A stretch of DNA of 57,079 bases, filler included, from Sluysia triapertura (Eukaryota): NCBI GenBank assembly GCA_046118255.1. It is 4 parts of 4 records of this genome, joined end to end, with 100 filler letters (N's around TTAATTAATTAA, not from the genome) between each part and the next. Parts side by side here need not be neighbours in the genome. Positions count along the whole stretch, not along the records: positions 18,803 to 32,494 come from JBJNIA010024620.1; 3 more parts are not named here. One strand, written 5' to 3'. This document shows positions 3,951 through 56,909 of the stretch, one piece after another. Position numbers and translations under genes: made by a program. The stretch's first letter is position 1, and every line of letters starts with the position of its first letter. The notes beneath the pieces are model-generated. The model was not told the origin of the DNA. It ran no database searches and saw nothing but the letters and a program-made list of their open reading frames with translations.

Positions 3951-5560
3951 TGTAGTGACCCACCTTAATAACCACTAAAATTTTATTGAAAATTAATTTT
4001 TTCTTCATTTCATCACATCTCAACAGCCATACATCCATTTACTACATATTCTTTAAAATCAAATTATATTCACAACTCCACAGCACCTAAATTACATTCA
4101 ACATTACCAATTCATGTTAACTAATTCATCAGAGACATTACTCGACAATCACAATAATCCAACAACAAACACATTCGAAGTAATCCAATTAATACTTTCG
4201 AATCCTTTAATTTACACTACATTTTAACAATCAATACCTAATAATTAATAACATTTATTCAATAACATTTATTCAAATAACATTTATTTGCTCAAACTAA
4301 GTCACAATCATAAACTTATAACACATAAACCACAATGACATCTAATACCATTCCATTACACTAATAAATCTACTCCAAACGCAAAAATATACCCACTTCA
4401 CACCTTTGAATCAAGTACATTTCAAATGCACTATTCATCAATGCATAATCATCATCAACACAGAACTACAACACCGTAAACATCAAACAAATCAATTACA
4501 CAAAACATAGTATAATAACACCTTAAATATACAAAGAGTTGTATTGCAAATATTCTTAGATTCATTAAATTAAAATCTTCTCAATAAACCTTTTTATCCA
4601 TGATATTTCAGTACATAAAATTTGTTTTCAAATATGAACTTCAATCAGTATCGAAGAACTTATTCTAACATTCTTTATTTCACTTCAAGACTTATACCAA
4701 TTACTATATCTTCAAAGGTTAAATATATTTATCAATTCTTTCGAAACAATTTCTAATCAGTAATTTAGTTTCAAATACATTTTAATTTATTTCAACATAT
4801 TAAAATTTTATAAGAATGTGGTGGTCAACACTTATAACCTCAAAAAATTTATTAAAATTCAACAACATCCAAATCACAGTCATATTCAACAATATCAATT
4901 TACATTAACTATTTCACAAAAATCATAACTCGACACTTACAACAAACCAACAATTAACTCATTCCAAATAATACATCTAATACCCCCAAACCCCCACCTT
5001 ACACTTCATTTTGGCAATTGATATCTAATATTTGATAACATTCATTCAATAGTTTATTCTCTTAAATCGAACCACAATTATAAACTTACAACATAGAAAC
5101 CACAAACACATTTAATACTATTCCACAACATCAACAAATATACTTGAAACATAGAAAGCACCTACTTCACGTCTTCGAATCAAGTACAACATTTCAAATA
5201 CACTATTCATCAATGCATAATCATCATTAACACAGAACTTCAACACTAAAAACACCAAACAAAATAATCACATAAAACATAGCATAATAACATCTTAAAT
5301 ATACAAATAGTTATATTGTAATAGCCCTTTTAAATTTAACTAATCTCGATCTCCTCAATAAACCTTATCCATTATATTTCAATGCATAAGACTTGTTTTC
5401 AAATATAAAAGCTTCAATCAATTTAGAAGAACTTATCCTAACATTCTTTATTTCATAGTTTAACTATATTTAACAATCCTTTCGAAACAAATATAGCTCA
5501 GTAGCTTATTTCAAAATACATTTTAATTCATTCCAACATACTTAAATCCTTCAAAAATTT
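3951..5560 (+). repeat. Tandem pair of G-poor cassette leader sequences (unit 1 3951-4816, unit 2 4817-~5560)
   Basis: The units start TGTAGTGACC and TGTGGTGGTC and share long diverged blocks (e.g. TTCACACCTTTGAATCAAGTACA / TTCACGTCTTCGAATCAAGTACA). Homologous to 13212-13770. Confidence 0.85.
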
Positions 5561-5870
5561 AATATAAATCTAACACAGCTCTAAAGAGTTAATTTTATAA
5601 AACGAAGCACCAACGATAATTCGAGCATTGTGTACTCTATCATCGTTACTTCTTCACAGATATCAACGATCTTTAGTTCAGTTTATCTTTTATATGTAAG
5701 AAATAACGATTGTATAAAGAAAAGTTCATGTCTTTTGTAGAGAAAGTTTATGCGTTTCTCTTTCATTAATAATAATAATAATATGATTATTGTTATTATT
5801 ATTATTCTTATTATTATAATTATAAACTACCAAAACCATTTTTCGAAATCTTTAATACGAACAGTTGCTC

Positions 5871-6044
5871 CCATCACCAGTATTGACATAGCCTGTTAAA
5901 ATTCTCATTATTCTATCAATACTGATGATGGCTAATCATCAGCAACTACATTTTGCTACAGTGAAATTGATTTCTGCACGTCACCCAATCAGAGTCGATG
6001 TTGTTTAATGTTCTTTCTCGAGGCTCTGATTGGATGACCAATCA
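5871..6044 (+). promoter_or_regulatory. Double inverted-repeat module, copy 1
   Basis: Stem 1: CCATCACCAGTATTGA (5871) / TCAATACTGATGATGG (to 5931). Stem 2: CCAATCAGAG (5985) / CTCTGATTGG (6024-6033), then CCAATCA (6038-6044). Confidence 0.75.
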
Positions 6045-6117
6045 ACCATCATAAGTATCAATATAATTTTAAAAATTTACATTTTATTTCGGTAACAATA
6101 ACACTCAGAGGATTCTC

Positions 6118-7795
6118 GTGGTAAATTTTTTTAAAAAATTTTTTGGTATCACTATGAGATATATTTATAAAACTGAGAGAGATCTGTTGTGCTTTGGACC
6201 AAATGAAACAAGAGAAAAATTTATTTATCAGACAGTAATCTTAATATACAGCGATATCGAATATCAAGAAAATGTTAAAACACCTACGTTTTTAGTTTAT
6301 TCTTTTGGCTGGAATATAAATTGGGATCGAGTAGTACCTCAAACATTATTATTGCCCAATACGTCATTTTATAAACAATTGAAGAAGATGATTGATAAAG
6401 TTGTGAGAAGAAAAGCAAAATCATAGTCGTCGTAAATTGATTGATACAATTTTAGAATTAGCGAACATTGTTAGGCATGAGCGGAAGTGTATTTTAGAAG
6501 AGAATATGATAATCCTTCAATCCGTGATCGATAGTAAACTACGTGAATTAATCATAAATGATGTTCCGAATGAAGTTATAAAGTATTACCATGACAAACC
6601 TGTTAAAGATGTATATAAAATTAGGTTATACATCTTTTACTGTTTGAAAGTCGTGATTGGATGGCCAACCACAATCGACTTCGTATGAGTTAAAAATAGT
6701 TATTTATTTTCTTTATAACAAGATTGCAAAACAAAAAAATCAAGTACAGTATTGCTATTCAAAAATTTTTCATTTTTTTGATATTGAATGTCTAAATTGA
6801 AAAGCTAACATAATCGAAATTAATTTAATTTCATAAAAATTATCATGGCAAACAATGTTCTAAAACAATTTATCCATGATTTCGAGTTTAATAGTAGAAC
6901 CCGTTGTCCTGATCGTCAGTCTATTGTGAACAAATCGTATCAGCTATAGATAGTAAAGATAACATCGCTGTAGATATAGAATCAACATCAAATTTTGAAT
7001 ATCAAGTATATTGCCGAAGCATAGAATGTCAAGATAAAATATTGATGTATTTTAAATATGTAAATACCTTTGACGTAACAAATTTTTTGTCTGTTGATGA
7101 AAAACAAAATGGCAAACATCACTACATTGTTCATATATCCTTGAAAACACATATGCGTAGATCATATAAGAACCAAAGATGGAGCGTAAGACCAATACGT
7201 TATTGTTCTGGCCAGATATCACGACGTGAAATAAGATATCGTAAAGATACCATAGATGTAACAAACCTATTGTCGGATGATAAAAAAGAAAACACTGATG
7301 AAATAACGAAAACATTTTTATTCACAATTGATCCACCTAGATACAACCTAGATAAAATTTGTTATCGATTCGTCATACACTATGAAACAAAATTTGAGAT
7401 TAGAATTTAAAAGTCGTACCGTCAAAATTCGTATGAGTAATGTGGAAAATCTCAGTGAGACACATAATCATATTTTATGGATAAGAGTGCACGGTGGTCG
7501 AATTGGTTTAATCTTGGTCACAGAATTTAAGTTATGGTCTATATCCGATTCTATCATCAAAGCATCTTCAGTTTATGTACACCAGTTTAAGGATTGGTCT
7601 GACAAAGGATGGCTCCCTTATGCAAGAATTAATTATAGATTTATATCGTTTTTTACTTTAGATGATAAACACAATTCTGGGTTCAACGGAATGCAACACG
7701 ATGCAATAATGGATTTTGACGTAACGATATTAAAATTAGTTTTCAAAATTAAATATAATTGTTTATTCAATAAAATTGTCTTAGTTAACTTATAA
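6118..7795 (+). pseudogene. Fragmented, apparently intronless orphan ORF downstream of module copy 1
   Basis: Chain of same-strand ORFs (6118, 6437, 7042, 7382) broken by stops and frameshifts, with AATAAA near 7769. No recognisable domain. Confidence 0.5.
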
Positions 7796-12906: not shown

Positions 12907-13211
12907 AGTCAGTTATATTTTTTAGAATGTTGCAATTACTAATAAAAAGATTGGTTGCATATAATTACATTGTTATACCAATAAGACAGAGCGCGCACTA
13001 TAGATACATCAATATTAAGGCATCGTGAGCGCTCTGTTTCGCCTAAGCATAGCTAGCAAATACTTTGTGCATGCGCATATTTTTATCGTGCATACTAACA
13101 TACTACATACATACATGTGCACAGTGTCTTAGAAACGGCTGATGCTGAATTAGTGTACTTGTTTTTCTTATGATGGTTAGTTGTATCAAATCAAAACCTA
13201 CATAAAAAAAG

Positions 13212-13770
13212 TATAGTGGATAACTGTTATAACTCCTAAAACTTTAAAAGAAAAAATTAATTAAACCTCATACACACTCACAAAACAGTTCATTTGTCTA
13301 AACTAAACCATATTCACAATTTCATAATATACAAACCACAGTTAAATCCAATACCATAAACTTTCACCAACAAACCTACCAAAAACATGTAACTCAATAT
13401 CCACTACAACCAAATAATTTCCTCATTTAAAATTATTTACTTCACGCCTTCGAATCAATTACAACACCTTAAATTCACCATTTGTCTCAGCATATTCACC
13501 AATAACACAATACAATACAACTCAAAGACAACAAATAAACAAATCACATACAACATTACACAAAATATTTCAAATATACCAAGAGTTGTATTGTAATTTA
13601 TCCTTTTACACTACCCTACCACATTCGTCTTAGTGCATCTCTTCACAATAACCTTTCAATATTTAAATATTACTTTCAATCAAGAACTTAAATCACCATT
13701 TAAGAATTCACTCTAACATTCTACATTTTACTGCATAACAAAAGCATTCTTACCATATCACATTACGACA
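13212..13770 (+). repeat. G-poor cassette leader (same subfamily as 3951-5560)
   Basis: Starts TATAGTGGATAAC. Shares TTCACGCCTTCGAATCAATTACAAC and AAATATACCAAGAGTTGTATTG blocks with the 4-5 kb units. Confidence 0.8.
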
Positions 13771-14051
13771 AAGATATACGCAAAAATCTTTAGTTTAAAT
13801 ATGTGCAAATTTTATTTCTTTGTTGATTTAAAATATGTTAAGAATTAAAAGAACAAGACAGAAAGGTCGTACATACTTAATACAATAAATTTATGCATTT
13901 TGTTGTCATTATTGCTACTATTATTACCAATTCTATCATTTAATTCGTTATTATTATCAAATTATCATTATATTTTTTATTATTACCATCATTATCGACA
14001 TTTTAATTTTAATTATTGGTTGACTAAAATTATACACAAATCAGTATCTAC

Positions 14052-14212
14052 CACTATCAATAATTAATTCCTGCCAATACATTTTAATTAACATCACTAC
14101 TGATAGTGCTTAGTTCGATAATGTGCACTATAAAATTTTACTCTTCCTGGCATCCAACCAGAATTAAATTCATTTTTGTTCTACCAAACGATTCTGGTTG
14201 GATGACCAATCA
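14052..14212 (+). promoter_or_regulatory. Double inverted-repeat module, copy 2
   Basis: Stem 1: CACTATCA (14052) / TGATAGTG (14101-14108). Stem 2 is a perfect 14 bp: CATCCAACCAGAAT (14151) / ATTCTGGTTGGATG (14191-14204), then ACCAATCA. Confidence 0.75.
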
Positions 14213-15262: not shown

Positions 15263-15372
15263 TGATACTTAACCCCTTAACTCGAGCGAAGTAAACCCTC
15301 TGAAATGAGAACACTCGAGTTAATTCGAGCGTCAACACTTTTCGTATTACTTTAATAATCACAATCGTTTAA

Positions 15373-15478
15373 CCCCTTAACGTTCAATTTTTTGTAAATA
15401 TCACACTAAAATATAGTTTAGTAAATAATGCAGCAATAAAAAATGAGTTTTTTTGAAAAAAAATTGAACGTTAAGGGG
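15373..15478. mobile_element. piggyBac-type MITE (106 bp)
   Basis: TIRs CCCCTTAACGTTCAATTTTTT / AAAAAATTGAACGTTAAGGGG, flanked by TTAA on both sides. A related orphan end TTAA-CCCCTTAAC sits at 15269. Confidence 0.85.
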
Positions 15479-16479
15479 TTAATAATTGTGTCACACTTGT
15501 CAATAAATGGATTTTTAAAGATGTCATCATTATCGCTGATATCCAATACTTCATTACTACTAGATTTGATTACATTTTTTAAAATTATTTATTCGCTCAA
15601 ACTTTGACTTAATAGTACTAATTTATCATACTTTAATTTATCAATAAGTTTATTTATTTATTTTGTTTAAATTTTGGACACAGTATATAATAATCTGAAG
15701 AATATTTTAGTTATCATTATATCTGACTGCGACCAAATGATTGATATTTTCTTTATTTTAATTTGCAGAACAAATTGATAATTTTATGAACAATTCATTT
15801 AATTTTTGTACAAGTTATTGAATGATTTTCTAATTACGTCAATTTATATATAGATTTTTTTATTTGATAACTTATTTAAATTGATGGAGTAGTCATCCGT
15901 TTTAAATGTGAATTTTTTTGGTTCACACAATTGAAATTGTTTCTTGCATCTCATGACTCGTTATATATAATTTGAAAAAATAACCAATGAATAATCTTTT
16001 AAATTGTTTTGGTTTCCATTGATTAAATCTTAAAACGTGTCCTTTTTAGTTTATACTTGCTGATGTAACAATAATTGAATAAATAAATATTTATACATAT
16101 TTTCTCTCTAGATACCATATTGTATTTTCTACTGAATCATTTTTAAATAATAAATAAGAACAAGAGAATTTAAATATAAAGAATGTGGTAATAATAACAA
16201 AATTAAATTTATCAATACAATCTCATATGTTGTACTAAATGTGCCATTGTTGCTACCACAAAACAATAAATATGATGAGGAAAATCATCGTTTTCTTAGG
16301 CAAATAAGTTGATAATTTTCTCCATTCACGTCTTGACGATTAAAACAAGTCAAATTATTCTGTGACTTATACAGTTAAAAACACATTTTATATAATGTTT
16401 TTTTACTGTTATAAGCAAAAAATGTTTCTCAATTCTATTCTATAATAATTTCTTCATAATTAATTTTTCACTAGATAAT

Positions 16480-21654: not shown

Positions 21655-22250
21655 TGTGGTAGCCAACCCATTATCATAATAAACTTTATTAAAAATTTAT
21701 TTAAATATATTCCACATTTCCAAAAATTCATCCAAAATAATTCATCTTTCATCTCTCAACAATTCAATTTCAACCACATTTGAAGTTAACCATCAAATAT
21801 CTTCAAACTAATTCAAACACCCCAAATTCATAATCAGCATCATTTAATTTTCAATAACACATAAAGACATCACTACTTAAACATATCAAGAAAATAAATC
21901 ACATTCTTAACATTCTATAACTATTCTTGCAAACATACTAAAACTTACACCATAACTTACCTTTTTATTCTCGAAATCATTCTCTTTTAACATACTTTTA
22001 ACTCACGATCTACTAACACCTAAATAACATCTCCACCCGTTAAAAGCATTTAAACACATAACCCCATAACATTAAACCACAATAAAATCGTAAACCATTA
22101 AATCACATAAATTTATCTAAAATATTTTGTCTTTTACCCCAAAACAATCACGATCACATTCGAGAGTAATCAACAAACATCTTCAAAAACATCCAAACAT
22201 TATAAATTCACTTTCAACACATCCTCATATTTAACATCATAAATTCACAT
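21655..22250 (+). repeat. G-poor cassette leader (second subfamily)
   Basis: Starts TGTGGTAGCCAACC. Shares the TTAAACCACAA..CATTAAAT..CTAAAATATT..CAAAACAA block with 45818-46200. Confidence 0.75.
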
Positions 22251-22608
22251 TTTTTTTCTATTATTCTATTTCAATAGATTTAAATATGTTAAGAATATCT
22301 TTAAGAACATAAAAGAAAGTTTATGCTTAATTCAAAAGATAAAAACTTTGTGTTTTCAAGACAGTAATAAAAATAGCACCTTCGTTATTATTATTATTAT
22401 CACCATTTTTATCTTCATCTTTGTCACTGTATCTATTCTATTTCTAAATTCTAAATATGTCGAGAAAATAAATAAAAAAGGAAGAAATGTTTTGTGATTT
22501 AAGAGAAATGTAGAAATTTATGTTTTGTTATTATTATTATTATCATTTTTATCATTGTCATTTTATTTTGTTAATTCTATTTTTAATTCTGAATTAAATT
22601 AGTAATTA

Positions 22609-22765
22609 CCACCATCAATGTTGACATTACTAATCACTATGTATAAATGCATGTCAACATTGATGATGGCTCACCTCTCATTCACTTGGCAATAAACATT
22701 ATTAATGGTCGTCCAACCAGAGTTATCATCACTATTTTATATTTCTCTGGTTGGACGGCAAATCA
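22609..22765 (+). promoter_or_regulatory. Double inverted-repeat module, copy 3
   Basis: Stem 1 matches 18/19: CCACCATCAATGTTGACAT (22609) / ATGTCAACATTGATGATGG (22651-22669). Stem 2 is a perfect 13 bp: CGTCCAACCAGAG (22710) / CTCTGGTTGGACG (22745-22757). Confidence 0.75.
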
Positions 22766-22952
22766 GATGCATAACACACTTACTTTTCCTAAATATTGGC
22801 AGCAAAGTATGATCACATTTTCATAATAATTACTAATTGGCAGCAATTTTTCATACACATTTTCGTAAAAATTACATTAATATTATTGGCAGTGTTATCA
22901 TTATTAGACTTTAACTACAAGTATCTGACATTGCTAAAAAATTTTGTAAAAA

Positions 22953-23610
22953 TTGAAAATTAAAGATAATATAGACTTATTGATGTTATCTCCTAAATCT
23001 AAAAGTTACGGGAAACTTGATTCTGAAAATAAATCCATAAACGACAATGATGTTCTTAAAGAGCATAAAGATAATGGCGATGATGAAAAAAATTATAAAG
23101 ATGATGATCATAAAGTTGAAGACCATAAAGAAAATGGCAACGAGGTTAAACACTATAAAGATAATGATTACCAATCTAACTATTATAAAGATCATGACCA
23201 TAAAGTTAAAGAGTATAAAGATAATGACGATGATGTAAAAGAGTATAAAGATGATCATAAAGTTGAACATTATAATGATGGTGTCAATGAGATCAAACAC
23301 TATAAAGATGATGATTACCAATCTAACTATTATAAAGATTGACCATAAAGTTAAAGATTATAAAGATAATGACGAGGATGCAAAAGGCTATAAAGATGGT
23401 GATTATAAAGTTAAACGTAATAGTAAATGATGTGAATGATATGAATTGCTTTATTATGAAGGTTGTAAGACATGTAGTGTAAGAAAGGCTGAGAAATGAT
23501 TATGTAATTTAACTGGGAATTTTGTTAATTATGCCATGAGTTATATGTTTATTACATGAGTTGGGCCACCGCAGAGGGTTTGCACTAGTGGCCGATCAAA
23601 TATGTAATTT
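22953..23610 (+). pseudogene. Asp/Lys/His/Tyr tandem-repeat ORF downstream of module copy 3, frameshifted
   Basis: About 30-bp units encoding YKD(D/N/H)D(H/D)xxxx. The repeat continues past the stop at 23342 after an apparent 2-nt deletion (GAT-TGAC vs GATCATGAC). Confidence 0.55.
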
Positions 23611-26165
23611 TTAAACTTTGTTTTTTAACTAATTAACCCTTGGCAATACCCCAATGAATTTAATTAATTTAATGATAAATATAAATATATTTTCAAATGA
23701 AAATGAATTTAAATATTTTAAACATCTTTATTATGATTAATACAAGAGATTTTCATATATGGTTCATTTTAACATACTATTTGTACTTGTAACAATGTGC
23801 TGAAATTTTCAGCGCACTTCACATACAAACTTTTACAGTTTCTGTATGTTGTTTTTAACTTTTTAACATAATATCTTGCACGTTTCTTAGACAAATTTAT
23901 TCGCTCAAGTTTATGTTTTACATCTAAACACTTCATGACAAATCCAATTATATTGAGAATTAAAATGCTTAAGGATGTAACTACAAATAGCTAGTGGCAA
24001 TTTTGCCGAAATACTCAAATAAACAAGTTATTGTATATCTGTGATCTTCAAGGGATCCCGCATGAACATTTAATTAATATACAAATATTAATCCACCAAA
24101 GCAACAAGTTAATGTCTTATTATAATTATTACATCGCTACATCATTTATTTATGTATATTTCCATTTTGGCCAATAATATTTACTCTAGAAAGCGTTTTC
24201 CTATGTGAAAGATGACAACCAAGTTGTCAATCATGAAACTGTATTAGTAATGGCGATGTGAACTCAATCCTAAAACATAACAATATTAAAGAAATTCATA
24301 AACTAACTAACACCACTTTTAAAAACTCAAAAAATTACATAACGAAGATATTAACTTAGATGACAATGTAGAGATAATAAAGCTAATGAGTATTAGAATA
24401 ACAGCTGCTCTTCAATCTGAATCCAGTTTTTAAAACCAATTTTGCATAATCAATTATTTAGCCAATTTTTAAATCACCTGAAGAAAGTGATAACACAAAT
24501 GAATTTGGAAATCAATAACTAAAGAAAAACAATTTTCAAATTTTACTGCATTACGCATTAAAGAATTTTTACAAAATTGTTTTTTATGTACATTTAAAAT
24601 TATCTTTCATAAGCTTATCAATTTATTTAATTTTTATTTTCTTTAGTTTAGCGAAATGGCTTGTTCGTGATTTAAATGAAATTAATTTTATGCAGTATAT
24701 TTTTATTAATTATTCTAGTGTTCTCGTCATTAAGATTGTTTTTTCTGCTAGTTTAGTAAGTTGGTCTAAAGCAAGTGAGTTTTCTACATCATCAAGATGA
24801 TGTTTTATTATTTCCATAGGATCTTCAACCTTACCAGAAATATTCGTAATTTGAGACATATTCGAATTGGATGATATGACTACAATTAAAGATATAAATA
24901 ACAAAGTGTGGATTTTCAAAAGATTGAAAGCTGTATTATCGAGTCAGATAGTGATGTTAAAATAGGTGCTGCAATGTATGTGTGTACTAATAAAAGTGAT
25001 AATAATGGTTGAAGAATGATAAAAATAAAGATATGTAAAGATTTTGATAGGATGTACTAATAGGCGTGGCATGAAATTAATAAGGTGTAACGTATTTAAA
25101 GATATGCAAGATGAGGTGATATAAATATAAGGTTATTAAATATTTGATTAGGAAGAATATCATAAGTAATGATAATTTAATAGGATTTGATATGTAAATT
25201 AAAACATGAAATAATACTGGTCATGGTATGAAAGCTGTGAATTATTAGATTGTGAAAATTTTTTAATGTATAACACATTTAATGCGGTATGTGATAGTCT
25301 GAATTCCCGCATATTATGTTGAAATTATGTAAATTAAAAGTGATAATAATTACAATTCTTCTTTGTAATTTTTTATTTACTCATAATTGCAGTTGTTGCT
25401 TGAAATTCCACATGATGTGAATTCATGTCATCTGTCCTCAATGTGTTAAAAATAACGAATGATGTAATGTTTTCTTATGAGATTAAACAGAAAGTATTTT
25501 ATACTAATAATTTTATTAAATCAGATTTTAAACTCTAGATAAATTCCTTAATTTATCATAATTTCTTCGAAACTCCATCTCTGAATCCTCTTAAAACTGA
25601 ACGCTTTGTCATAACTACCACTGAATTACAATGCAATACTTTTCTACATTATTTTCCTTTTTTTATCGAGCATAACTTACTACTCCGATTATAAACAACT
25701 TCTCATGTTTATTCCTGCTTAAATCTTAGAGCCTTTTGTGCTTTCCGTTCCATGATTATCAAGGAATGAATGTGCAATTACGTAAAAGTTACGCAATTAG
25801 AGAATCTAAAGTTGTACAATTAGTAATATAGGGCTCGTGAATTATGAATTATAATCGATTGAATAAATATTATTTAACCTTTTTTCACGTGTGAGTGTTA
25901 AGGGATTAATGAAAAGATATATTCTGAATATATGTGAAACAGTTACTTCATTAAAACAAATTTACTTTAAATAATTTAAATAAAATTTCATAGATATTTG
26001 GAAATTTATTTTAACGATGATGCAATTGTTTAATATCTAATTAAATAATTATTTATGCACTGTTTTTTCGAAATTACATATTGTTATTATTATGTATATA
26101 TTTATATATTTATTATTTTATAATGAACACTTGTTATAAGTGACTGTTGAATCTATAATATTTAG

Positions 26166-26674
26166 GTATAAAATATGCTTGGTTTACCTTACGCAAAAAA
26201 TATCATCATTTAGTATCAAAAAAGTCATTTATTCATTGGTTTGTCGGTGAAGGTTTAGAAGAAAGTGATTTTATTGAAGCTAACGAAGACATCCAGGTAC
26301 TAGAAAAAGATTATGAAGAACTAAGTGAAAGTACAGAAAATACAGAGGAAACTTCAACACCGAAAAAAGTTAAGCAGAGTAAAAATCAAAATAATTGTGC
26401 TACTACTAATATCGCTTCTGGTTTAAGTTCAAATAATGGTGCAGGTAAAACTGAAGTAATTCAAAGTACGAAAAATATTTCTAATGAAACTGTTGTGGTA
26501 GAAAATTCCAATACTACTTCGTATTGTCAACAACTCTACGATGATATTGTTACAACACTTGATCATAAAATACAAAATACAAATACAAAAATGTACCGTA
26601 AGTTACAGAAATTGCAACATAAACTAAATCAAATCAATAAAATTTACAATTGCAATACCACAACAACCTCTGAA
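26166..26674 (+). CDS. Exon encoding a divergent alpha-tubulin C-terminus with a long extension (no upstream exons found; may be a pseudogene)
   Basis: TTTAG|GT ATA... reads IKYAWFTLRKKYHHLVSKKSFIHWFVGEGLEESDFIEANEDIQVLEKDYEEL, versus alpha-tubulin [49 protein letters not shown]. Donor GAA|GTAAGT at 26675. Confidence 0.75.
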
Positions 26675-27019
26675 GTAAGTTTAAGTTACATTTATTGCTA
26701 ATTATATTAATCCTTTTGTTTTATGTAGAAGAGCATATTTTATGTTTTACTAATAAACGGGTTCGTCCATAATGGAATACAGGCAAAATTTAGCTTACTT
26801 ATACAATTTCATTTTAATTTTCTACTTATATGTAGATGGTCTTTGTGTGATGATATAAATTTGGGTAATATTTTAGAAGTTAGAATTGTGCATTGGTGTT
26901 GATGGGATTGCACAATTACGGAATAGTAAATGAGTAAGGAATATTTGGAACTAAAAATGTAGTAAGAATTCATACAAAAACATGGGTAGAGCATAATAAA
27001 ACATTTAAAGATGAAGGCA

Positions 27020-34511: not shown

Positions 34512-35706
34512 TTAGTCCACAACTTCCATTTTATTTTCATTATTTTCTCGCTTCGCTTTTCGTCGATTTGCCGATAGTTCTTCTGCTTTTTCCACTAAAC
34601 CAGACAATTTTCCTTCTTCGGCTAATATTTTCAACAATTCAACAATAAAAGGAACATAATTGTGACGTCGACGAATGTTTTCAATTCGATATTTTTCATG
34701 CTTATTCTTTTCTACTTGAATACTGGAAATTATTTGTGGTATTTGTTCTTCCTAAAAAAAGATAAATATTTTTTTAGAAATTTAATTTAATGTAATTAGA
34801 ATATGAATACGACTTTTTCGTTCTAATTTACATTTAATTTAGTCATCAATTTCTGAAACTATGTGAAACATTAACTCAAACGTTTTCATATGTCACTGAT
34901 TTATAAAACAATTTTTACCGGATCACCAGCTTCCTGCAATAGTTTTAATTGTTTCTCTAACAACTCCAGTTTATCGGGAACTAATGCCATTATATTGAAA
35001 AATGTGTTTGAATATTTATTCATTCGTTCAACAATAACTGGTTTAATTGTTTCAATCCACGTTTTACCTTCTGAAATTTCACCCAAATCAATAGGACCAT
35101 CTTGTAAACCATCTAGCTCATATAATCTACCTCCAATAGGCATATACCCAATAAAATGATACACGTCCTGATTATCACAATAACTTTTATCTTCTAATTC
35201 ATAAAACGTTGTTGACCTGAAACTATTATGAACTTTACGAATTTCATCAGAATTCGATATTGTTAAACCTTTAGTCTAAATCCAAATACTATAGAAGAAT
35301 AAATCTTACACAAGAATCAAATGTTGAACAAAATTCTTTTAAGTCTTGTAATGTTTTGCCTAATTCAGCATCTTTTAAATTAAATAAAATATTCAATATA
35401 GCCTGTGTTGCACATGCGTTTGTAATAACCTTAAAATTAACATTAAATTTAAAATATGCAAACCTGCTTTGCAAAAAATATGTTCTCTAATTTATCTTGG
35501 TCAGTAATTTCTCGTTTGGTGTTCAATTCTTTTTCCCATTTAAATAAAAATATTATTCCATATGGTTCCGACATATTATTCATATAATCCAAATCAATTA
35601 TTTCTTCGCATTCAATACCATTTACTCCAAATCCTTTAATAATTTCTGTAAAAACTCCTGGGTCACTTTCAATTAAGCACCATTCTCCTGTATCTCGAAT
35701 AGCCAT
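34512..35706 (-). CDS. UCHL5: Ubiquitin carboxyl-terminal hydrolase L5 (UCH37), 4 exons: 35706-35464, 35429-35310, 35275-34919, 34751-34512 (319 aa)
   Basis: Motifs GEWCLIESDPGVFTE, FFAKQVITNACATQA (catalytic Q/C), YHFIGY..LYELDGL (H/D) and C-terminal ENIRRRHNYVPFIVELLKILA. Three phase-0 GT-AG introns (34, 34, 167 bp) give an open 960-nt CDS. Confidence 0.96.
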
Positions 35707-36430: not shown

Positions 36431-37482
36431 ACAGAAAACATCAAATAATATGTGGACATCAGATAGTAGGTGTAACAAATTGTAGGTGGAGTTTAAAAAA
36501 TTTTTTACACCTACTATTTTAACAGTAAATTGTTTTTGTTTAATAATACAGGTCCTATTAATACAATTTTGAATTAGTTCTTGTCATCAACCCCACTACC
36601 ATGACGAAAAGAACATTCAGCATAGCTTTCAAGTCACAGTATTTATGGAGACAGGCAACACGGCCTATTCCGCAGCGAAGCACTTCTCTATTCGAGACAA
36701 AGTCGAGTATGCGGATACAGTATTTAAACAATGGTTCAATAATAAGGAAAGAATTCAAAAACAACAAAAGAGTTTCGGTTGCAGGTAGAAAGCGTATAGT
36801 GTGGGATTTATGCAGAGCCCACATATCCGAAAAGGTTAAAGATCACTGTGGAAGGAGAAATATTCATTTGATAGTTATTCCCGACGGTCTCACATCATAT
36901 CTTCAAGCGAGCGATATTGGAGTGAATAAGGAATTTAAGGATAAAGTTTTTGAAAAGATAAACCAGTGGAAGAACTCGAATTCCGTTCAATACACAAGAG
37001 TCGGTAATCCCAGACCGCCCGAACATGACGTGGTGAATTCCTGGATTAGTATTGCTTGGAATGTACTATCCATCAACATCATTCAAAGATCAATCAATGC
37101 AGCAGGATTTTCTGCAAATTATTCTGATTGGCATATAGCAAACCATGATATATATGGTGAAGCTTCCTTTGAAAAGTATCTATCAGAAGTTAACGAAGAC
37201 AATAACCACGCAACAACGAAGAAATGCTCGATGATGATGAGTTTGTTATAATTGATGAATAAATGTCATTGTATTTTTTAATCTTCTATATAAAAGCTTC
37301 TACCTAAGATTTTATTTGTTTAAGAATAATTTTAGTTTTTCAAATTCTTGTTGAATACAACTTTATTTATTGCACTTTTTTATGAAAGCATCGAATAATA
37401 GGTATAATCAAATAATAGGTGCATTTTTAAAAATACATCTATTATTTAAATAGAATGACACCTACTATTTGATGTTTTCCGT
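36431..37482 (+). mobile_element. pogo-family DNA transposon, internally deleted (about 1.05 kb)
   Basis: TIRs ACAGAAAACATCAAATAATATGTG / revcomp ACGGAAAACATCAAATAGTAGGTG, with TA flanks. Subterminal TAGGTG/CACCTA repeats. Confidence 0.88.
36601..37251 (+). CDS. Truncated pogo/DDE_1 transposase
   Basis: IVWDLCRAH...VIPDGLTSYLQASDIGVNKEFK matches the DDE_1 pattern LxxDxxxxH...IPxGxTxxLQPxDxxVNxxFK. The HTH region and first catalytic D appear to be missing. Confidence 0.8.
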   Translation: MTKRTFSIAFKSQYLWRQATRPIPQRSTSLFETKSSMRIQYLNNGSIIRKEFKNNKRVSVAGRKRIVWDLCRAHISEKVKDHCGRRNIHLIVIPDGLTSYLQASDIGVNKEFKDKVFEKINQWKNSNSVQYTRVGNPRPPEHDVVNSWISIAWNVLSINIIQRSINAAGFSANYSDWHIANHDIYGEASFEKYLSEVNEDNNHATTKKCSMMMSLL

Positions 37483-39510: not shown

Positions 39511-41091
39511 ACTTATAGAATTAAAACTAATGGTTACAATTATAAATCTTTTAAAAGTTCCATGTGTCAGCTAAGAGAAGTTATCACCAAATCCTTAGTA
39601 GCTATCTGGCAAGAGCAATTTTACTTGTGTTTAGTTGACGTTTGTCCTAAACCTTATATCGTTGATTTTTGATTTAACCTTGAGGTTTAATTAAGCAAAA
39701 TTATTTTCTCTACTTCAATTAAACAAAATTTTGTTTTCTCTAAACTTTAAATTTTAGATACTCATTAAATTAGAATAAAAATTAAAATAAAAATACATAC
39801 TTTCAAATATATAATCCAAATAATTTATTAATTAAATTTCAAAAGTTGTATTAATAAATTCAAAGTATACACATTATAAATCGATAAAGATTAAAATCAC
39901 ATTCATATAAAAATCAATAAAGTCACAATTACATACAACAAAATCTTTATTACACAAAAGGTTTTAATTATAAAGTATTAATTTTTTATTCTTGCTAGTC
40001 TTTGGTTCTTGTTATTATTGTTTATTAATCAGTTTATTAATAACATTTCATTTTAGTTACCTTTTCTTGATTAATCGTTAATTCCAGATATACTTACTAA
40101 ATTATTTTGTTAAGAGTTAAGACCTTCTAATTTAAAGAAATATGGAATTAAACTATACACAAACATAATATTTAATCTTGCCAGCATACAAATGCATCAC
40201 CATAAATTGTAGGCTGTAAGTGAATCTATTTTATGTACTTTGTGAGTTAGGATAAAATACTTGCAGATGTGAATAAGAAATTACTACAATAAAGTTAAAT
40301 ATCAAATTACCGGTGTTCATGGTGAAATAAACCTAAGCAAAATTTAGTGACGAATATTTTTTCAAATAAAATTATAGTTAAAATGTCAGATACAAAAAAA
40401 TCTTATTATCTTTGTTGAATACATAACAAGATAATAATAATACATGAAATTAAGAAGTTGAGCACTTTATATAATAACATGTTTACATATTAATAAGGCT
40501 TCTAGCTCACTATCTTTATAAATGTACTTAATTTAGAACTAAACCATCCTGACAATAAATGTAAAGTATTTTCGCAATGACTTTATAATATGTGCCAGTA
40601 CCATCCCAGTACTATCACATTCTCTAATAAACCTTTAATTTCTATAAATTTAACCATACAAAAGGGTGAAATATTTATATCTTTGAATTTATTCAAGAAT
40701 CAGGTAGAGAAATACACATTGAATAGAAAGTTGATGATAATAATTCATTTTGTGCCCAGTTTCTATTTTAATCACATACACTGCTTTAGTTTTAGGTAGC
40801 TTCCTTGAAAATATTCAACTAAATACTGATAATAATAAATCATAAACTGTAATATGTTACATTAATAACAATTTTTTAAATAAGATTTTTAAAATATTAC
40901 TTAATAATAAAAGAGAATAAAATAAAATATTAACTTATAGCGTGAGCTAATGGCAAGAAATTAATTTTTTTAAAATTATTCATTTGTTGTATTTTAAAAT
41001 TGCTACAATATATTTTTCTAAATTCTATTTGATATTAAACAAACAGAAAAAAATTTATATAAAAATACAAAAAAATTAGTTTAATGATAAA

Positions 41092-42084
41092 ATGAAAGTT
41101 GAAGAATTACCGTCGTTTATAAAACCAGCTTTTTCAGATTCACCATTATTTATGGCCATTCGAATTTTTATTGTTTTAATTGGTATTTTAGCAAATATAT
41201 CACTATTGTTGTTTTTAGTAAATCATAAAATCGGTTCAGTAAAAAGTAGTTTATTGGTTCGACTTCAGACAATATTAGATACCATTACACTTTTTGGTGT
41301 AATAGGGGCTATGTTTACAAATGTGAAAATCATTCCATTAAAAATCTTATGGCTATATCGTATATATTGTGCTGCATTCCACAACAACATAATATTTTGG
41401 ATGTCTTCTTTATGTTCTTCATATGTGCTCGTTTTAACTTCAATCGATCGGCTTTTAGTGGTAGTATTTCCGTTTAAATATCGAGATGTAACAATAGTTT
41501 ATTACAGAATTGGAATTGTAATTGCTGTTATGATCGCTATATTATTTAATATACCGTCATTTTTTGAAGGCAGTGCCCAAGTAATTGGTAATGGCACTTT
41601 ATACTGTCAATTTGAATGGGAAAAAGAATCATATTCTGATTTTTGGAAGGTACATTCGTACTTGTGGTTAACTATTTCTACTTTTATACCAGTTAGCATA
41701 TTAGTAATAATGTATATTCGTATTATAATTAGTTTACGAAGTACAAATAAAATAGTAGAAAATGATAAAATAAAGCAAATTAAACAAAAATTATCAATTC
41801 GATTTACTATTGCTTCTTTGATTATTTGCGCTTTTTATATTGTAACATATATAAGTGATGCTACTATTTACATGTTAAATGTGCTAGCAATTATAGATTT
41901 AAATTTAGCAAATCGATATTATTATTATTGTAACTTCTCACTTGGTTTTAATGCAATGATAAATCCATTCGTTTATCTTCTTTTAATGAAAAATTATAAA
42001 AACTATATTGTAAAATATCTATATTGTTGCAATAAAAAATCGAAAGAAGTGAACGAAATTACTGAAAATACTGAAGAAATGTGA
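41092..42084 (+). CDS. Class A (rhodopsin-family) GPCR, intronless, 330 aa
   Basis: Seven hydrophobic segments. GILAN (TM1), Cys at the top of TM3, SIDR (DRY variant), TM4 Pro, ECL2 Cys, FIP (TM5), INPFVY (NPxxY), C-terminal CC. Confidence 0.93.
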   Translation: MKVEELPSFIKPAFSDSPLFMAIRIFIVLIGILANISLLLFLVNHKIGSVKSSLLVRLQTILDTITLFGVIGAMFTNVKIIPLKILWLYRIYCAAFHNNIIFWMSSLCSSYVLVLTSIDRLLVVVFPFKYRDVTIVYYRIGIVIAVMIAILFNIPSFFEGSAQVIGNGTLYCQFEWEKESYSDFWKVHSYLWLTISTFIPVSILVIMYIRIIISLRSTNKIVENDKIKQIKQKLSIRFTIASLIICAFYIVTYISDATIYMLNVLAIIDLNLANRYYYYCNFSLGFNAMINPFVYLLLMKNYKNYIVKYLYCCNKKSKEVNEITENTEEM

Positions 42085-45480: not shown

Positions 45481-46557
45481 CTGAAAAAGTGAAAGTAATT
45501 ATAAGATTAAGAAATCATCCTGGACACCGTTACTAGTATTAATGATTCTGTTTTAAACTCTAAATGGTATTTTTAAATCAATAGATATCGTAGAGGATGA
45601 GGAATATAGAAATATATGCAGCAATTAATTTAATGGAAAAGAAAAGTATATCGATTACAAATATTTACAATGAATATTTGGAAACAAAGTTTAGTTCAAA
45701 TTTGATATTTACTGCATTTACTTAGAACCTCAATTTATTGGTAAACCACATCATGTAGATAAAATTCCACGTTATCTGCAATATGCATATAGACCAATGC
45801 TAATAGCATTCGCATTGTGTGGTGGTCAACCTTTCACATTTTATAAAAATCCCTTTTCACAATATTACAAAACCATATAAACACTCAAAATATACAATTC
45901 ATATTCAAAAGTCAATATAAAACAATATCAAATCAAACCAACACATTATACATAAAACCTTATCCTTAAACATTTTAACATTCTCACGTTTATCTCCTCT
46001 ACATTCACCAAAACAATTCATCTACTAAAGTCATTTTATATCCACAGTCTCATAATATTTAAACCACAACAGCATTCTAAATCATTAAATTACATTAAAA
46101 AGTTACCTAAAATATTGTATCTCTCATCTCAAAACAACTCAAGCATAATCATATTCCAAAGTATTTAGACCATAATCACTTACATGTTAATAACATATCA
46201 GCTAGAAACATTATCTCAACATTAGAACGAGGTATCATTAAGACTGGTAAGTTAATCAGAAAAACCAAAGATACAAGAAAATATCATGTTCCTTCTTTAC
46301 CTATAACTTTTACATATGTTAAAAATGTTAAGACATAATAGAAAGATCGTGTTTATTAAAAGAGATATAAGAATTTCTGTGATTTTGGATAATAATAATG
46401 TTAACATTTTTTAATTTTTATTATTTTTATTTACAATTAAAAATATAAATTTGTTTTTAAACTACATTGATTTACAATGACAATGGTTTAGTGATAGTGG
46501 TTTACACATCAATCATATGGTTCATCTCTCAATTAATTAGTTCTCGATCTTTATTGT

Positions 46558-46619
46558 TGGTCGTCCAATCAGAGTTATTCTAATCATTAATTTTGTACGT
46601 TTCTCTGGTTGGACGGCCA
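46558..46619 (+). promoter_or_regulatory. Inverted-repeat module, copy 4 (stem 2; stem 1 degenerate at about 46460-46515)
   Basis: TGGTCGTCCAATCAGAG / CTCTGGTTGGACGGCCA. Confidence 0.75.
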
Positions 46620-47955: not shown

Positions 47956-48091
47956 ACTACTATCAATGGTGGCCTTGTTAGTTGCCATTGATAGTGGTTG
48001 GCTTTTCAACGTAAAAATAATTTGTGTTATTACTGGTTGTCCAATCAGAATGGCTCTCTTCATTATTTTTATCACTCTGGTTGGCCAGCTA
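47956..48091 (+). promoter_or_regulatory. Double inverted-repeat module, copy 5
   Basis: Stem 1: ACTACTATCAATGG (47956) / CCATTGATAGTGGT (47985-47998). Stem 2: TGGTTGTCCAATCAGAATG (48034) / CACTCTGGTTGGCCAGCTA (48073-48091). Confidence 0.75.
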
Positions 48092-48306
48092 ATAGAAATT
48101 CACTGTGAGGACATATACGTGTGCAAAAATTTATACATTATCAATTTAATGGGAGTCAAAAAATGTTTGCAAAGTGAGTAATGTCTACTGCTGAGTAAAT
48201 ATAGTAGTATTTGTGTTTATCAACAAAATAATCTGGCTGTTAAAGTTTATTTTTCTTATCATAAAAGCGCAAATTATGAATTATCTATAATCATATCGTA
48301 AATACA

Positions 48307-54773: not shown

Positions 54774-54937
54774 ATTGATTGGACGTCCGATCAATTTCTA
54801 TATTTAGGGAGCCACATAATTATATAGGCACGTATGCAATTATGATGTAACACTGATCATATTGAATGTAATTAACTGTCATCAGTCGACAGTCAAGTGA
54901 CATGCTGGATAATTTATCAACTGTCGACTGGTGACAG
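54774..54937 (-). promoter_or_regulatory. Inverted-repeat module, copy 6 (minus strand)
   Basis: Stem 1 matches 17/18: CTGTCATCAGTCGACAGT (54876) / ACTGTCGACTGGTGACAG (54920-54937). The minus strand then reads TGATCGGACGTCCAATCA (cf. TGATTGGATGACCAATCA in copy 1). A TAT-rich spacer lies upstream at 54960-55060. Confidence 0.65.
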
Positions 54938-55319: not shown

Positions 55320-56909
55320 TTATTCCTTAACAAAGAAAATAGAATAGCAACAGCTGAAACTATTTATTGTATACAAGTATTTAATGTTTGAATTTGAATT
55401 TTGATAAAAATTATCCTTCTTCCGAATATGCCTCGTCATTCTACAAAATTTGGATATTGTAAATATGTAAGTGATTTTATAATAAATTAAATCAAAACTT
55501 GATATTACATTAAGGTCCTGTTGATACTTGATGTCCGCCAACAAGTGTTGATTCTAAGAATATGGTCGGATGATGAATATAGGTTGGATGATGAACCAAA
55601 GAGAGCAATAGTTTCAAAAGCATCATGACTGTAGATACAATCTCCGCCATATCTGTAACATTGTCCATTTTGTAATCTTTCGTATAGACACAAGCCATAT
55701 TTATAATATTTGAATTGATGACCATAAGGTTTTACGTTTTCAGATGATAACATGTCATCACCATAATAATGTTTTAAATTTACAATTCTTGTTTTCGCTT
55801 TTGTCTTAATATTCATTAATGACATACTTTTATTTGTCGTAAATCGATATCGATGGGAACATGTATAGGTTCATCCTTTTCTATCTCGATATAATTTAAA
55901 ATATTAAGATAATTGGTATAGAATCGTTTCATTTGCAAGTTACGAGATATCTAACTAAACATGTTTCTAACTAATGATATCATTTTATTACGTATGAATC
56001 AACATCGATGAGGAACAGTATACTTTTATCTATTTTTATTAAGATATGAAATGAATTATTAATTTGGTTGGTATCTAATCGTTTTATTTGAAAGTCATGG
56101 GATATCTCGATAAATTTTCTTGTAACATCTTGTTTTGCATTTTGTTTGTCTATTAAGTTTAGCATACAATTTAGCATACAACTGATTTCGATAAGTTTCA
56201 CAAATTTCAATTCTATAATCGGTTCTTTAACAAATTTAAATGCTAATTGATCAAACTGTTCCATTAAGCAAAATTTTAACAAAATATTATCCAAAAGTTC
56301 ATGTTTAGATAGCATTGTTTCCATAATAATGACTTTATGCGAGAATAATCTTAAAATTTAATATAAGTTTCTAGATATTCTGTTAAAAGATAATTAACTA
56401 ATAAACTCAATTATGGGGTTGTTGTATGTGTTTGTTTGAAAATTAAAATGATTTAGAATCTTTAGAAGAGTCATTGAGGGCGTATCATTATAAAACAACC
56501 GAACGTGTTGACGAATTTTAGACTTATTAACATAATGAGTGAAATTTAAAGACTTGAGTACTTTAAAGTTACACCATGAAAAAATTGGATCATTTGCATT
56601 CTTAAATAATATAAGTTTATTTTGAATAATTATATGCTCGTCGATACAACACATTTCATATTGAGAAAGTTTAATTAAAATTTTGTAATTTTTGTATTTT
56701 AATTCTTTTATAATTGTGATGTATTTAATTTCTTGAAAACTCTTATAAAACTTTTGCCTTTTGTAGAAATTATTAATTTTTTTAGATCTTTCGTTATTTA
56801 ATCTTAAAATCTTTAGGCTTTTCTTATTATTACATTGAGGAGATTTATGAACATTATACGAACAAAGAGAAATAAAAGATTTAAATTTAATATCTATTAA
56901 TCTACACAA
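55320..56909 (-). pseudogene. Fragmented ORF chain containing an intact CCCH zinc finger
   Basis: ORF 55505..55825 has YKYGLCLYERLQNGQCYRYGGDCIYSH (C-x9-C-x6-C-x3-H, 55625-55690). Same-strand ORFs 56394-56909 and 55980-56324 lie upstream. Confidence 0.6.

Follow-up and report, generated by a model that had tools for sequence, protein, structure and literature searches.

A covarying hairpin inside the long, gene-bearing LTRs of a Ty3/gypsy retrotransposon family in Sluysia triapertura

Stem 1, the hairpin studied here, lies within the long terminal repeat (LTR) of a high-copy Ty3/gypsy retrotransposon family, an identification of the host repeat that we regard as close to certain. The stem sits 0.7-1.1 kb inside an LTR of 2.1-2.8 kb, whose parts follow in the order C/A-rich arm, stem 1, another hairpin termed stem 2, a reading frame specific to the subfamily and an AATAAA placed 113 nucleotides before the end. 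The complete element reads LTR, primer site, long gag with CHCC motifs, protease (PR), RT (reverse transcriptase), RNase H (RH), integrase (IN), polypurine tract (PPT), LTR. Its internal region measures 6-6.5 kb, in which env was not seen, and most of the copies examined are lone or truncated LTRs.

The window, the whole stretch of DNA that was analysed, comprises 57,079 nucleotides of AT-rich eukaryotic DNA, several contigs being joined by runs of N. An earlier note had quoted the arms of stem 1 in four copies, and all eight arms were recovered, once each and in place, at 5871/5916 (copy 1), 22609/22651 (copy 3), 47956/47985 (copy 5) and, on the minus strand, 54937/54893 (copy 6). A strict scan of the window found seven inverted repeats of the stem 1/stem 2 class, of which four are stem 1 and three stem 2; the average over 20 locally shuffled windows was 0.1. 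Stem 2 begins about 40 nucleotides past stem 1, stem 1 is decayed in copies 2 and 4, and no LTR start was found in the window for copy 6 (Table 1).

Table 1. Coordinates in the window of the LTR copies and their parts
Feature	Position	Strand	Remarks
LTR 5' end TGTGGTAGCCAACC (copy 3)	21655..21668	+	family motif TGTRGTGGYCAA
C/A-rich arm, then AT/ATT-rich tract (copy 3)	21669..22608	+	72-79% match to PPT-preceded LTRs L332 and L333; U3-like position suggested
Stem 1 (copy 3)	22609..22669		19-bp arms, 23-nt loop, 61-nt span; minus strand folds better
Stem 2 (copy 3)	22707..22766		inverted CCAAY-CAG boxes, core 22710-22757, then CCAATCA-like third box
Short TTGGCAGC repeats	22795..22895	+	between stem 2 and LTR reading frame
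LTR reading frame start (copy 3)	22983..23415	+	ATG 22983, stop 23342; 30-bp tandem repeat
Reversed LTR start	23425..23573	-	truncates copy 3, whose own right end is missing
Copy 1	4817..6426	+	LTR start 4817; second arm 3951-4816; stem 1 5871-5931; stem 2 5980-6038; MSL3 chromodomain-like frame 6073-6426
Copy 2	13212..14204	+	arm, decayed stem 1 (about 14048-14110), stem 2 14151-14204
Copy 4	45818..46619	+	LTR start 45818; stem 1 lacks its left arm; stem 2 46558-46619
Copy 5	47956..48093	+	shortened stem 1 (47956-47998) and stem 2
Copy 6, stem 1	54876..54937	-	element on minus strand

Several other features share the window. A CCCH-finger frame at 55505-55870 on the minus strand occupies the place upstream of the copy 6 stem 1 where the arm would be expected, and is probably what remains of another LTR copy; a distinct GC-rich hairpin of 13 bp lies upstream of copy 2 at 12986-13037. 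We also noted an intact-looking, intron-less GPCR (41080-42084) with one homologue, Schmidtea GCR089, at 46%, which makes a triclad flatworm host likely, a DDE_1 transposase piece (36562-37251), a ubiquitin hydrolase exon (34901-35275), an alpha-tubulin-like C-terminus recognised by eye (26159-26701), and a 114-bp element bounded by TTAA with inverted repeats of 27-32 bp, a piggyBac-like MITE in appearance (15369-15482). Scans of the window with Rfam and ARAGORN gave no match.

Boundaries and enzyme of the host element

Own-genome searches returned 1073 and 1969 first-look candidates, 40 of each being scored. The left boundary of the repeat is sharp and common to its copies: the flanks of 84 distinct left ends are unrelated, except for one nested pair. 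Copies cease to resemble one another at ...CACAACA, 2.1-2.3 kb past the left end, and the LTR ends read TGTRGTGG ... CCACAACA/ACAACA, that is, TG..CA with short inverted repeats whose symmetry extends over about 8 bp. Among 31 loci with a right end, 15 lacked one end and were dropped. Five of the 16 two-ended copies kept carry an exact 5-bp target site duplication (TSD), one of the five (L218) in low-complexity sequence, against 0.20 expected from mismatched pairs; the remaining 11 have no exact duplication by this rule. Other lengths stay at background (4-bp, 1 versus 0.73; 6-bp, 0 versus 0.13), and one more duplication, at L079, was spotted by eye after a variant end.

Upstream of the LTR, the pattern GGGG-N0-5-LTR start gave 110 matches (some places counted twice) versus none in the control, mostly as GGGGGCTGA joined to TGT. 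Of 32 contigs with the complete PPT context, 23 have integrase no more than 1.5 kb upstream, compared with 2 of 7 others, and the integrase usually stops about 200 nucleotides before the LTR. At L145, the RNase H-integrase region is decayed, and after it come a purine tract, the family left end, the arm and stem 1. Copy 1 itself, over 4817-6078, is colinear through both stems (67.5%) with the LTR of L325 that has integrase and a PPT before it. The pol of the family contains RT, RNase H and a DDE integrase in PR-RT-RH-IN order and has gypsy-type relatives.

Downstream, the junction of LTR end and primer site, ACAACA-N0-4-TGGTGTCAG, gave 32 matches versus 6 in the control. A version with one mismatch marks the end of L220, an LTR of the CCCH subfamily; no gag was found within 3.5 kb of that end. 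L328 holds, in order, the LTR start, both stems, 1.7 kb more, the primer site TGGTGTCAGGAGT and gag. Gag lies 2.3-2.7 kb downstream in 8 of 13 primer-site loci, 7 of those 8 having been fetched through the gag search. It contains two CX2HX9CX3C motifs, and its core is preceded by a long region. The primer site, which we take to be of the tRNA-Leu type, complements 44 tRNA-like 3' ends in the genome versus none in the control. In the two tRNA-like loci that were cut out, ARAGORN and Rfam recognised no whole tRNA, and a relaxed ARAGORN run returned noise. One of the 44 ends, L397:105-155, is a tRNA-like 3' half with CCA attached; such halves may be retro-copied tRNA halves. The AATAAA is kept 113 nucleotides before the LTR end in 25 of 30 right ends, a placement expected for animal gypsy LTRs from the description in PMC3601003.

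The first primer-site pattern, TTTACCACAACA-N0-12-TGG, was uninformative, with 23 matches versus 15 in the control. Comparison of all flanks against each other (84 left, 19 right) revealed no common internal sequence, because few of the flanks were internal junctions. Of the top 20 integrase contigs, mostly from other families, two held an LTR start, neither of them clearly linked. No intact pol was found with a copy-3-type LTR immediately next to it. Two interpretations were discarded. A minus-strand orientation of the LTR is ruled out by the positions of the PPT and primer site. A Ginger-like element with terminal inverted repeats (TIRs) ending at 23573 was rejected: that end is the reversed LTR start, and the flanks AGTGG/GAGGG are not a duplication. 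The described Ginger1 and Ginger2 DNA transposons do have TGT...ACA ends as here, but are characterised by TIRs of 40-270 bp and an integrase without RT (PMC2836005), whereas our family has a symmetry of about 8 bp, RT, PPT and primer site.

Only two contigs hold a gag-pol with an LTR both before and after it. The paired LTRs are no more than 66-83% alike in their aligned stretches and differ in their stems, the contigs being short; the flanking LTRs of L328/L325 (G000:C65850) and of L345 (G000:C16859) come from different subfamilies. Such unlike pairs may be due to subfamilies having recombined, or to assembly bias. LTR starts often lie inside, beside or facing other LTRs (window 23425-23573 and 3951-4817; L062, L095, L098, L102), a placement that may reflect insertion preference or dense clustering. 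Internally deleted copies were also seen (L329, L331, L335, L343), which have lost most of the stretch from RT to integrase, keep gag, protease and purine tract, and break in similar regions.

The earlier note had proposed, among other roles, an attC-like DNA hairpin for stem 1, and had allowed that the stems might prove to be the terminal repeats of an independent tiny MITE; the size of about 60 nucleotides, the C-A mismatches on one strand and the differing downstream frames would all suit such an origin. Both versions now look extremely improbable. Stem 1 keeps a constant place in an element that has a PPT, primer site, pol and a 5-bp TSD of its own; an attC-like DNA hairpin finds no support in this LTR retrotransposon, whose enzymes are RT, RNase H and a DDE integrase. 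The stem is not flanked by a duplication (5- or 8-bp flanking repeats in 0 of 67 copies, 3-bp repeats in 2 of 67), the copies share no common boundary there, and no cassette boundary was observed at stem 1, the place proposed for cassette breakpoints.

Pairing, covariation and fixed size of stem 1

Of 85 stem-2 sites across the genome that have a C-rich arm upstream, 65 possess stem 1, as compared with 10 of 80 control windows, so that most copies do possess the complementarity whose general lack would have told against a kept structure. Several of the 20 sites without it are wrongly oriented stem 2 matches or decayed copies. For pairing counts we used 67 genomic copies, left after 5 of 72 stem candidates had been dropped as mis-calls or off-register; this set was chosen for having a stem, and the figure of 65 in 85 is the unbiased one. 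Within the set, 925 of 1072 cells in the first 16 pairs are Watson-Crick (86%).

The claim that structure is kept while sequence changes is borne out by this pairing and by covariation. On a rough tree built from flanks without the stem letters, with 6 of the 67 copies left out, stem 1 shows 55 double changes. In 24 diverse copies, 10 of 18 pairs have changed on both sides, with 46 such cells versus 14 after shuffling, a count that relatedness inflates. The span of 58-61 nucleotides has a standard deviation (SD) of 1.0 around 16 unrelated loop groups (63 copies with a span of at least 58, four short-span copies having been removed), whereas the gap between stem 1 and stem 2 ranges over 17-54 nucleotides (SD 9.7). 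A constant span, unrelated loop letters and a variable gap together argue that a fold of fixed size is maintained. The noted span of about 60 nucleotides describes most copies, 57 of 67 measuring 60-61 nucleotides, but not copy 5, at 43.

Conservation within stem 1 falls in two motifs, CCAYCAYCA and TGACA, separated by variable sequence, and the seed-position pairs 4 and 5 vary among the 67 copies. Each of copies 1, 3 and 6 has, as reported, a single C-A mismatch, at pair 7 in copies 1 and 6 and at pair 4 in copy 3; the stem of copy 5 has a T-G wobble, opposite to that type. In some subfamilies a third hairpin, 'stem 0', with arms of about 19 bp, lies about 270 nucleotides upstream of stem 1 (L337:5036-5090, L304, and L345 about 650 nucleotides past the LTR start).

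Which strand folds, and possible roles of stem 1

Our preferred reading, to which we assign a probability of roughly 45%, is that stem 1 functions as a folded antisense-strand RNA hairpin, with stem 2 as the probable two-way promoter from which it is transcribed. Under this model the CCAAT promoter at stem 2 would fire both ways, forward to drive the LTR reading frame and backward to drive a short transcript through stem 1. Host small-RNA or double-stranded-RNA machinery would recognise the hairpin by length and shape, and such recognition would account for span and pairing being kept while the letters of stem and loop drift.

The antisense stem folds better in 48 of 67 copies, including copy 3 (z of -6.9 on the minus strand and -4.2 on the plus strand). 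At pair 7 the 67 copies have T-A 50 times and C-A 17 times, never T-G or C-G, and the pair is mismatched in 11 of 24 diverse copies. The earlier remark that such mismatches become G-T on the opposite strand therefore holds for pair 7, but does not extend to all pairs, for which the two types are balanced as tree events (41 versus 31, p=0.29); the raw excess of C-A-type over G-T-type breaks, 56 versus 30, is carried mainly by pair 7. Base composition also matters: the sense C/A-rich arm is 3% G over 21655-22280, and the G/U-rich antisense strand would fold better in any case. Evidence for the antisense strand is modest.

The sense strand also folds far beyond chance, with z from -4.2 to -6.3 in copies 1, 3, 5 and 6, and this suits a different role, as a cis signal in the sense RNA of the element or in its minus-strand cDNA, acting in packaging, export or dimerisation or as a template-switch pause; in the last version the pause would promote the swapping of LTR reading frames. 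A packaging or other cis signal is plausible because stem 1, being within the LTR, is therefore part of the genomic RNA, and long R regions have been linked to stem-loops (PMC3601003). A G-T wobble would fit minus-strand cDNA too, and the reading frames differ immediately after the stems. Against a cis signal, pair 7 of the sense strand accepts C-A and never T-G. Moreover, no breakpoint is seen at stem 1, since the subfamilies diverge in the upstream arm and still match through stem 2. We consider a cis signal unlikely, though the strongest competitor of the antisense hairpin.

Stem 2 covaries as well as stem 1 in the 67 copies, and we infer that it is a promoter. Its boxes are CCAATCAG-like, and a reading frame comes next; 56 of 67 copies have a third, CCAATCA-like box adjoining stem 2. 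CCAATCAG may resemble an NF-Y site and TGACA a TALE site. Both stems might be promoter palindromes acting at the DNA level, that is, inverted factor-binding motifs at fixed spacing whose fold is not under selection and whose arms stay alike through copying on a hairpin template while the element is reverse-transcribed. Copying from arm to arm could explain the equal covariation of the two stems, the conserved letters of stem 1 are themselves two motifs flanking a variable middle, and wobble events are symmetrical on the tree. However, the change between CCAAT and CCAAC in stem 2 strikes both arms jointly (43 versus 21, with only 2 wobbles), which a fixed site would not need; the mismatch that persists at pair 7 is one that copying would erase; and the loop of stem 1 is fixed in length with unrelated letters. 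Promoter palindromes are in our judgement somewhat less probable still than a cis signal, and the antisense RNA hairpin ranks above both.

Resemblance to a pre-miRNA, also proposed earlier, is upheld for size and falls short in other respects. Animal pri-miRNAs have a conserved lower stem and about 33-35 bp in total. The antisense hairpin with its lower stem reaches a median of 32 pairs, and at least 30 in 41 of 67 copies, scarcely above shuffled flanks; the lower stem has 8.7 versus 7.0 pairs and a mean z of -0.4 to -0.5 relative to those flanks. A Pol III terminator (T run) follows stem 1 in 1 of 67 copies in sense, and a T4 in 6 of 67 in antisense. Antisense AATAAA is not clearly enriched (49 of 67 copies versus 41.8 expected), and Rfam gave no match on stem 1 at the gathering score, the best hit scoring 27 bits against a cut-off of 70. 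In the foamy-virus U3 region, dumbbell pri-miRNA cassettes, and in BLV, Pol III hairpins, are described as neighbouring LTR hairpins of miRNA size (PMC6950176), like those here, and they likewise occupy the variable part of the LTR beside accessory reading frames (PMC6950176). According to the same source, these hairpins form terminator-bearing Pol III units that sequencing has confirmed, and they lie downstream of bel2/bet (PMC6950176). In our family the T4 runs are few, the stems are 17-86 nucleotides apart and stand upstream of the frame, and the antisense strand is favoured. By analogy, the foamy-virus U3 miRNA cassette appears to be the closest working parallel, one for which the terminator test fails here.

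Reading frames, relatives and meaning of the LTRs

The frame of copy 3 lacks the UNK-like CCCH finger into which it continues in other copies; in the copy-3 subfamily the 30-bp repeat frame ends in that finger. The CCCH frame was placed between TSD-bounded LTR ends and in L220, which a primer site bounds. Stem 2 is followed by a chromodomain-like frame (E 4e-14; 36 matches on 26 contigs) in a separate subfamily, whose right LTR end was searched for and not found. Other subfamilies have a myotubularin piece (E 3e-11) or weak Ras-like frames after stem 2. The Ras-like frames of L261 and L093 can be placed after stem 2 only, since the primer-site-like match of each is distrusted: that of L261 aligns with coding-like sequence, and that of L093 is not followed by gag. 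At L328 and L383, frames of 110-180 codons without a Pfam match lie between stem 2 and the primer site. Most frames downstream of stem 2 are interrupted by stops. No homologue of the CCCH frame was found at E 0.001 among 7 candidates, and protein-atlas scores for the chromodomain frame were all below 0.9. At L345, a myotubularin-like frame is fused directly into gag, without LTR end or primer site.

The element type is known: it is a Ty3/gypsy retrotransposon that appears close to the CsRn1 clade, although the closest pol matches carry no clade names. Similar to CsRn1, PwRn1 and AgCR, the family has the CX2HX9CX3C (CHCC) gag motif (PMC2582038), and it shares with the clade as described there the PR-RT-RH-IN order, a PPT before the 3' LTR, no env seen, and flatworm hosts, as is likely here. 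Unlike that clade, it has two CHCC motifs and a long pre-core gag region, a 5-bp rather than a 4-bp TSD, LTRs of 2.1-2.8 kb as against 381 bp in PwRn1, and a primer site (TGGTGTCAGGAGT, taken to be of the tRNA-Leu type) that differs from the tRNA-Trp site reported for the clade (PMC2582038). Hairpins and reading frames inside the LTR further separate it from the CsRn1 clade as portrayed in PMC2582038.

Very long LTRs with extra coding capacity are described for plant Ogre (LTR 1.9-6.5 kb) and for Burro, which has a planarian host (PMC6431247). The extra frames of those elements are described in the internal region; in our family that region measures 6-6.5 kb, and env was not seen in it. Two sets of separate retroelements were observed in the genome. 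At L260 (G000:C18410), a match to a Monjiviricetes-type fusion glycoprotein precedes a gypsy pol, the env-before-pol order described for Burro (PMC6431247). L248, L249, L250 and L266 (G000:C11142, C200353, C199542, C260035) have long open frames and a retrovirus-like pol with a second RNase H; an MLV-type integrase C-terminus is present in two and a TLV_coat env match in three, and gag follows env in a tandem array. By blastn, these four are unrelated to the stem-1 LTR family.

The host-like frames, namely the chromodomain, myotubularin and weak Ras-like ones, can be likened to LTR-mediated chimeric retrocopies, which are intron-less host-like frames lying in sense within LTR-element sequence (PMC5131818). 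As described, such retrocopies are flanked by discontinuous element sequence (PMC5131818), whereas here at least the CCCH frame is enclosed by both ends of a single LTR, together with which it is amplified.

What had appeared as recurring 'cassettes' and 'gene-front hairpins' of this genome are the LTRs of one retrotransposon family, whose orientation, ends and enzyme are now fixed. What appears new is the very long, gene-bearing and hairpin-bearing LTR, which exceeds several-fold the LTR length described for the nearest relatives and is provided with frames and strongly covarying hairpins. We found no published description of such an LTR family; Repbase and subscription journals were outside the scope of the search, and the family may already have a name there. 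A bolder and improbable reading is that a flatworm gypsy LTR could serve as a self-contained two-way expression unit, with a swappable gene on one side, partly host-derived (CCCH RNA-binding finger, chromodomain, myotubularin- or Ras-like), and small RNAs on the other. If so, each lone LTR would spread a gene together with a miRNA-like locus that the retrotransposon encodes, and would parallel, in an invertebrate, the LTRs of foamy viruses. Should the hairpins give rise to small RNAs, this would be a retrotransposon that encodes its own regulatory RNAs inside its LTR; should they not, the lone LTRs would still be a route by which host-like genes are multiplied.
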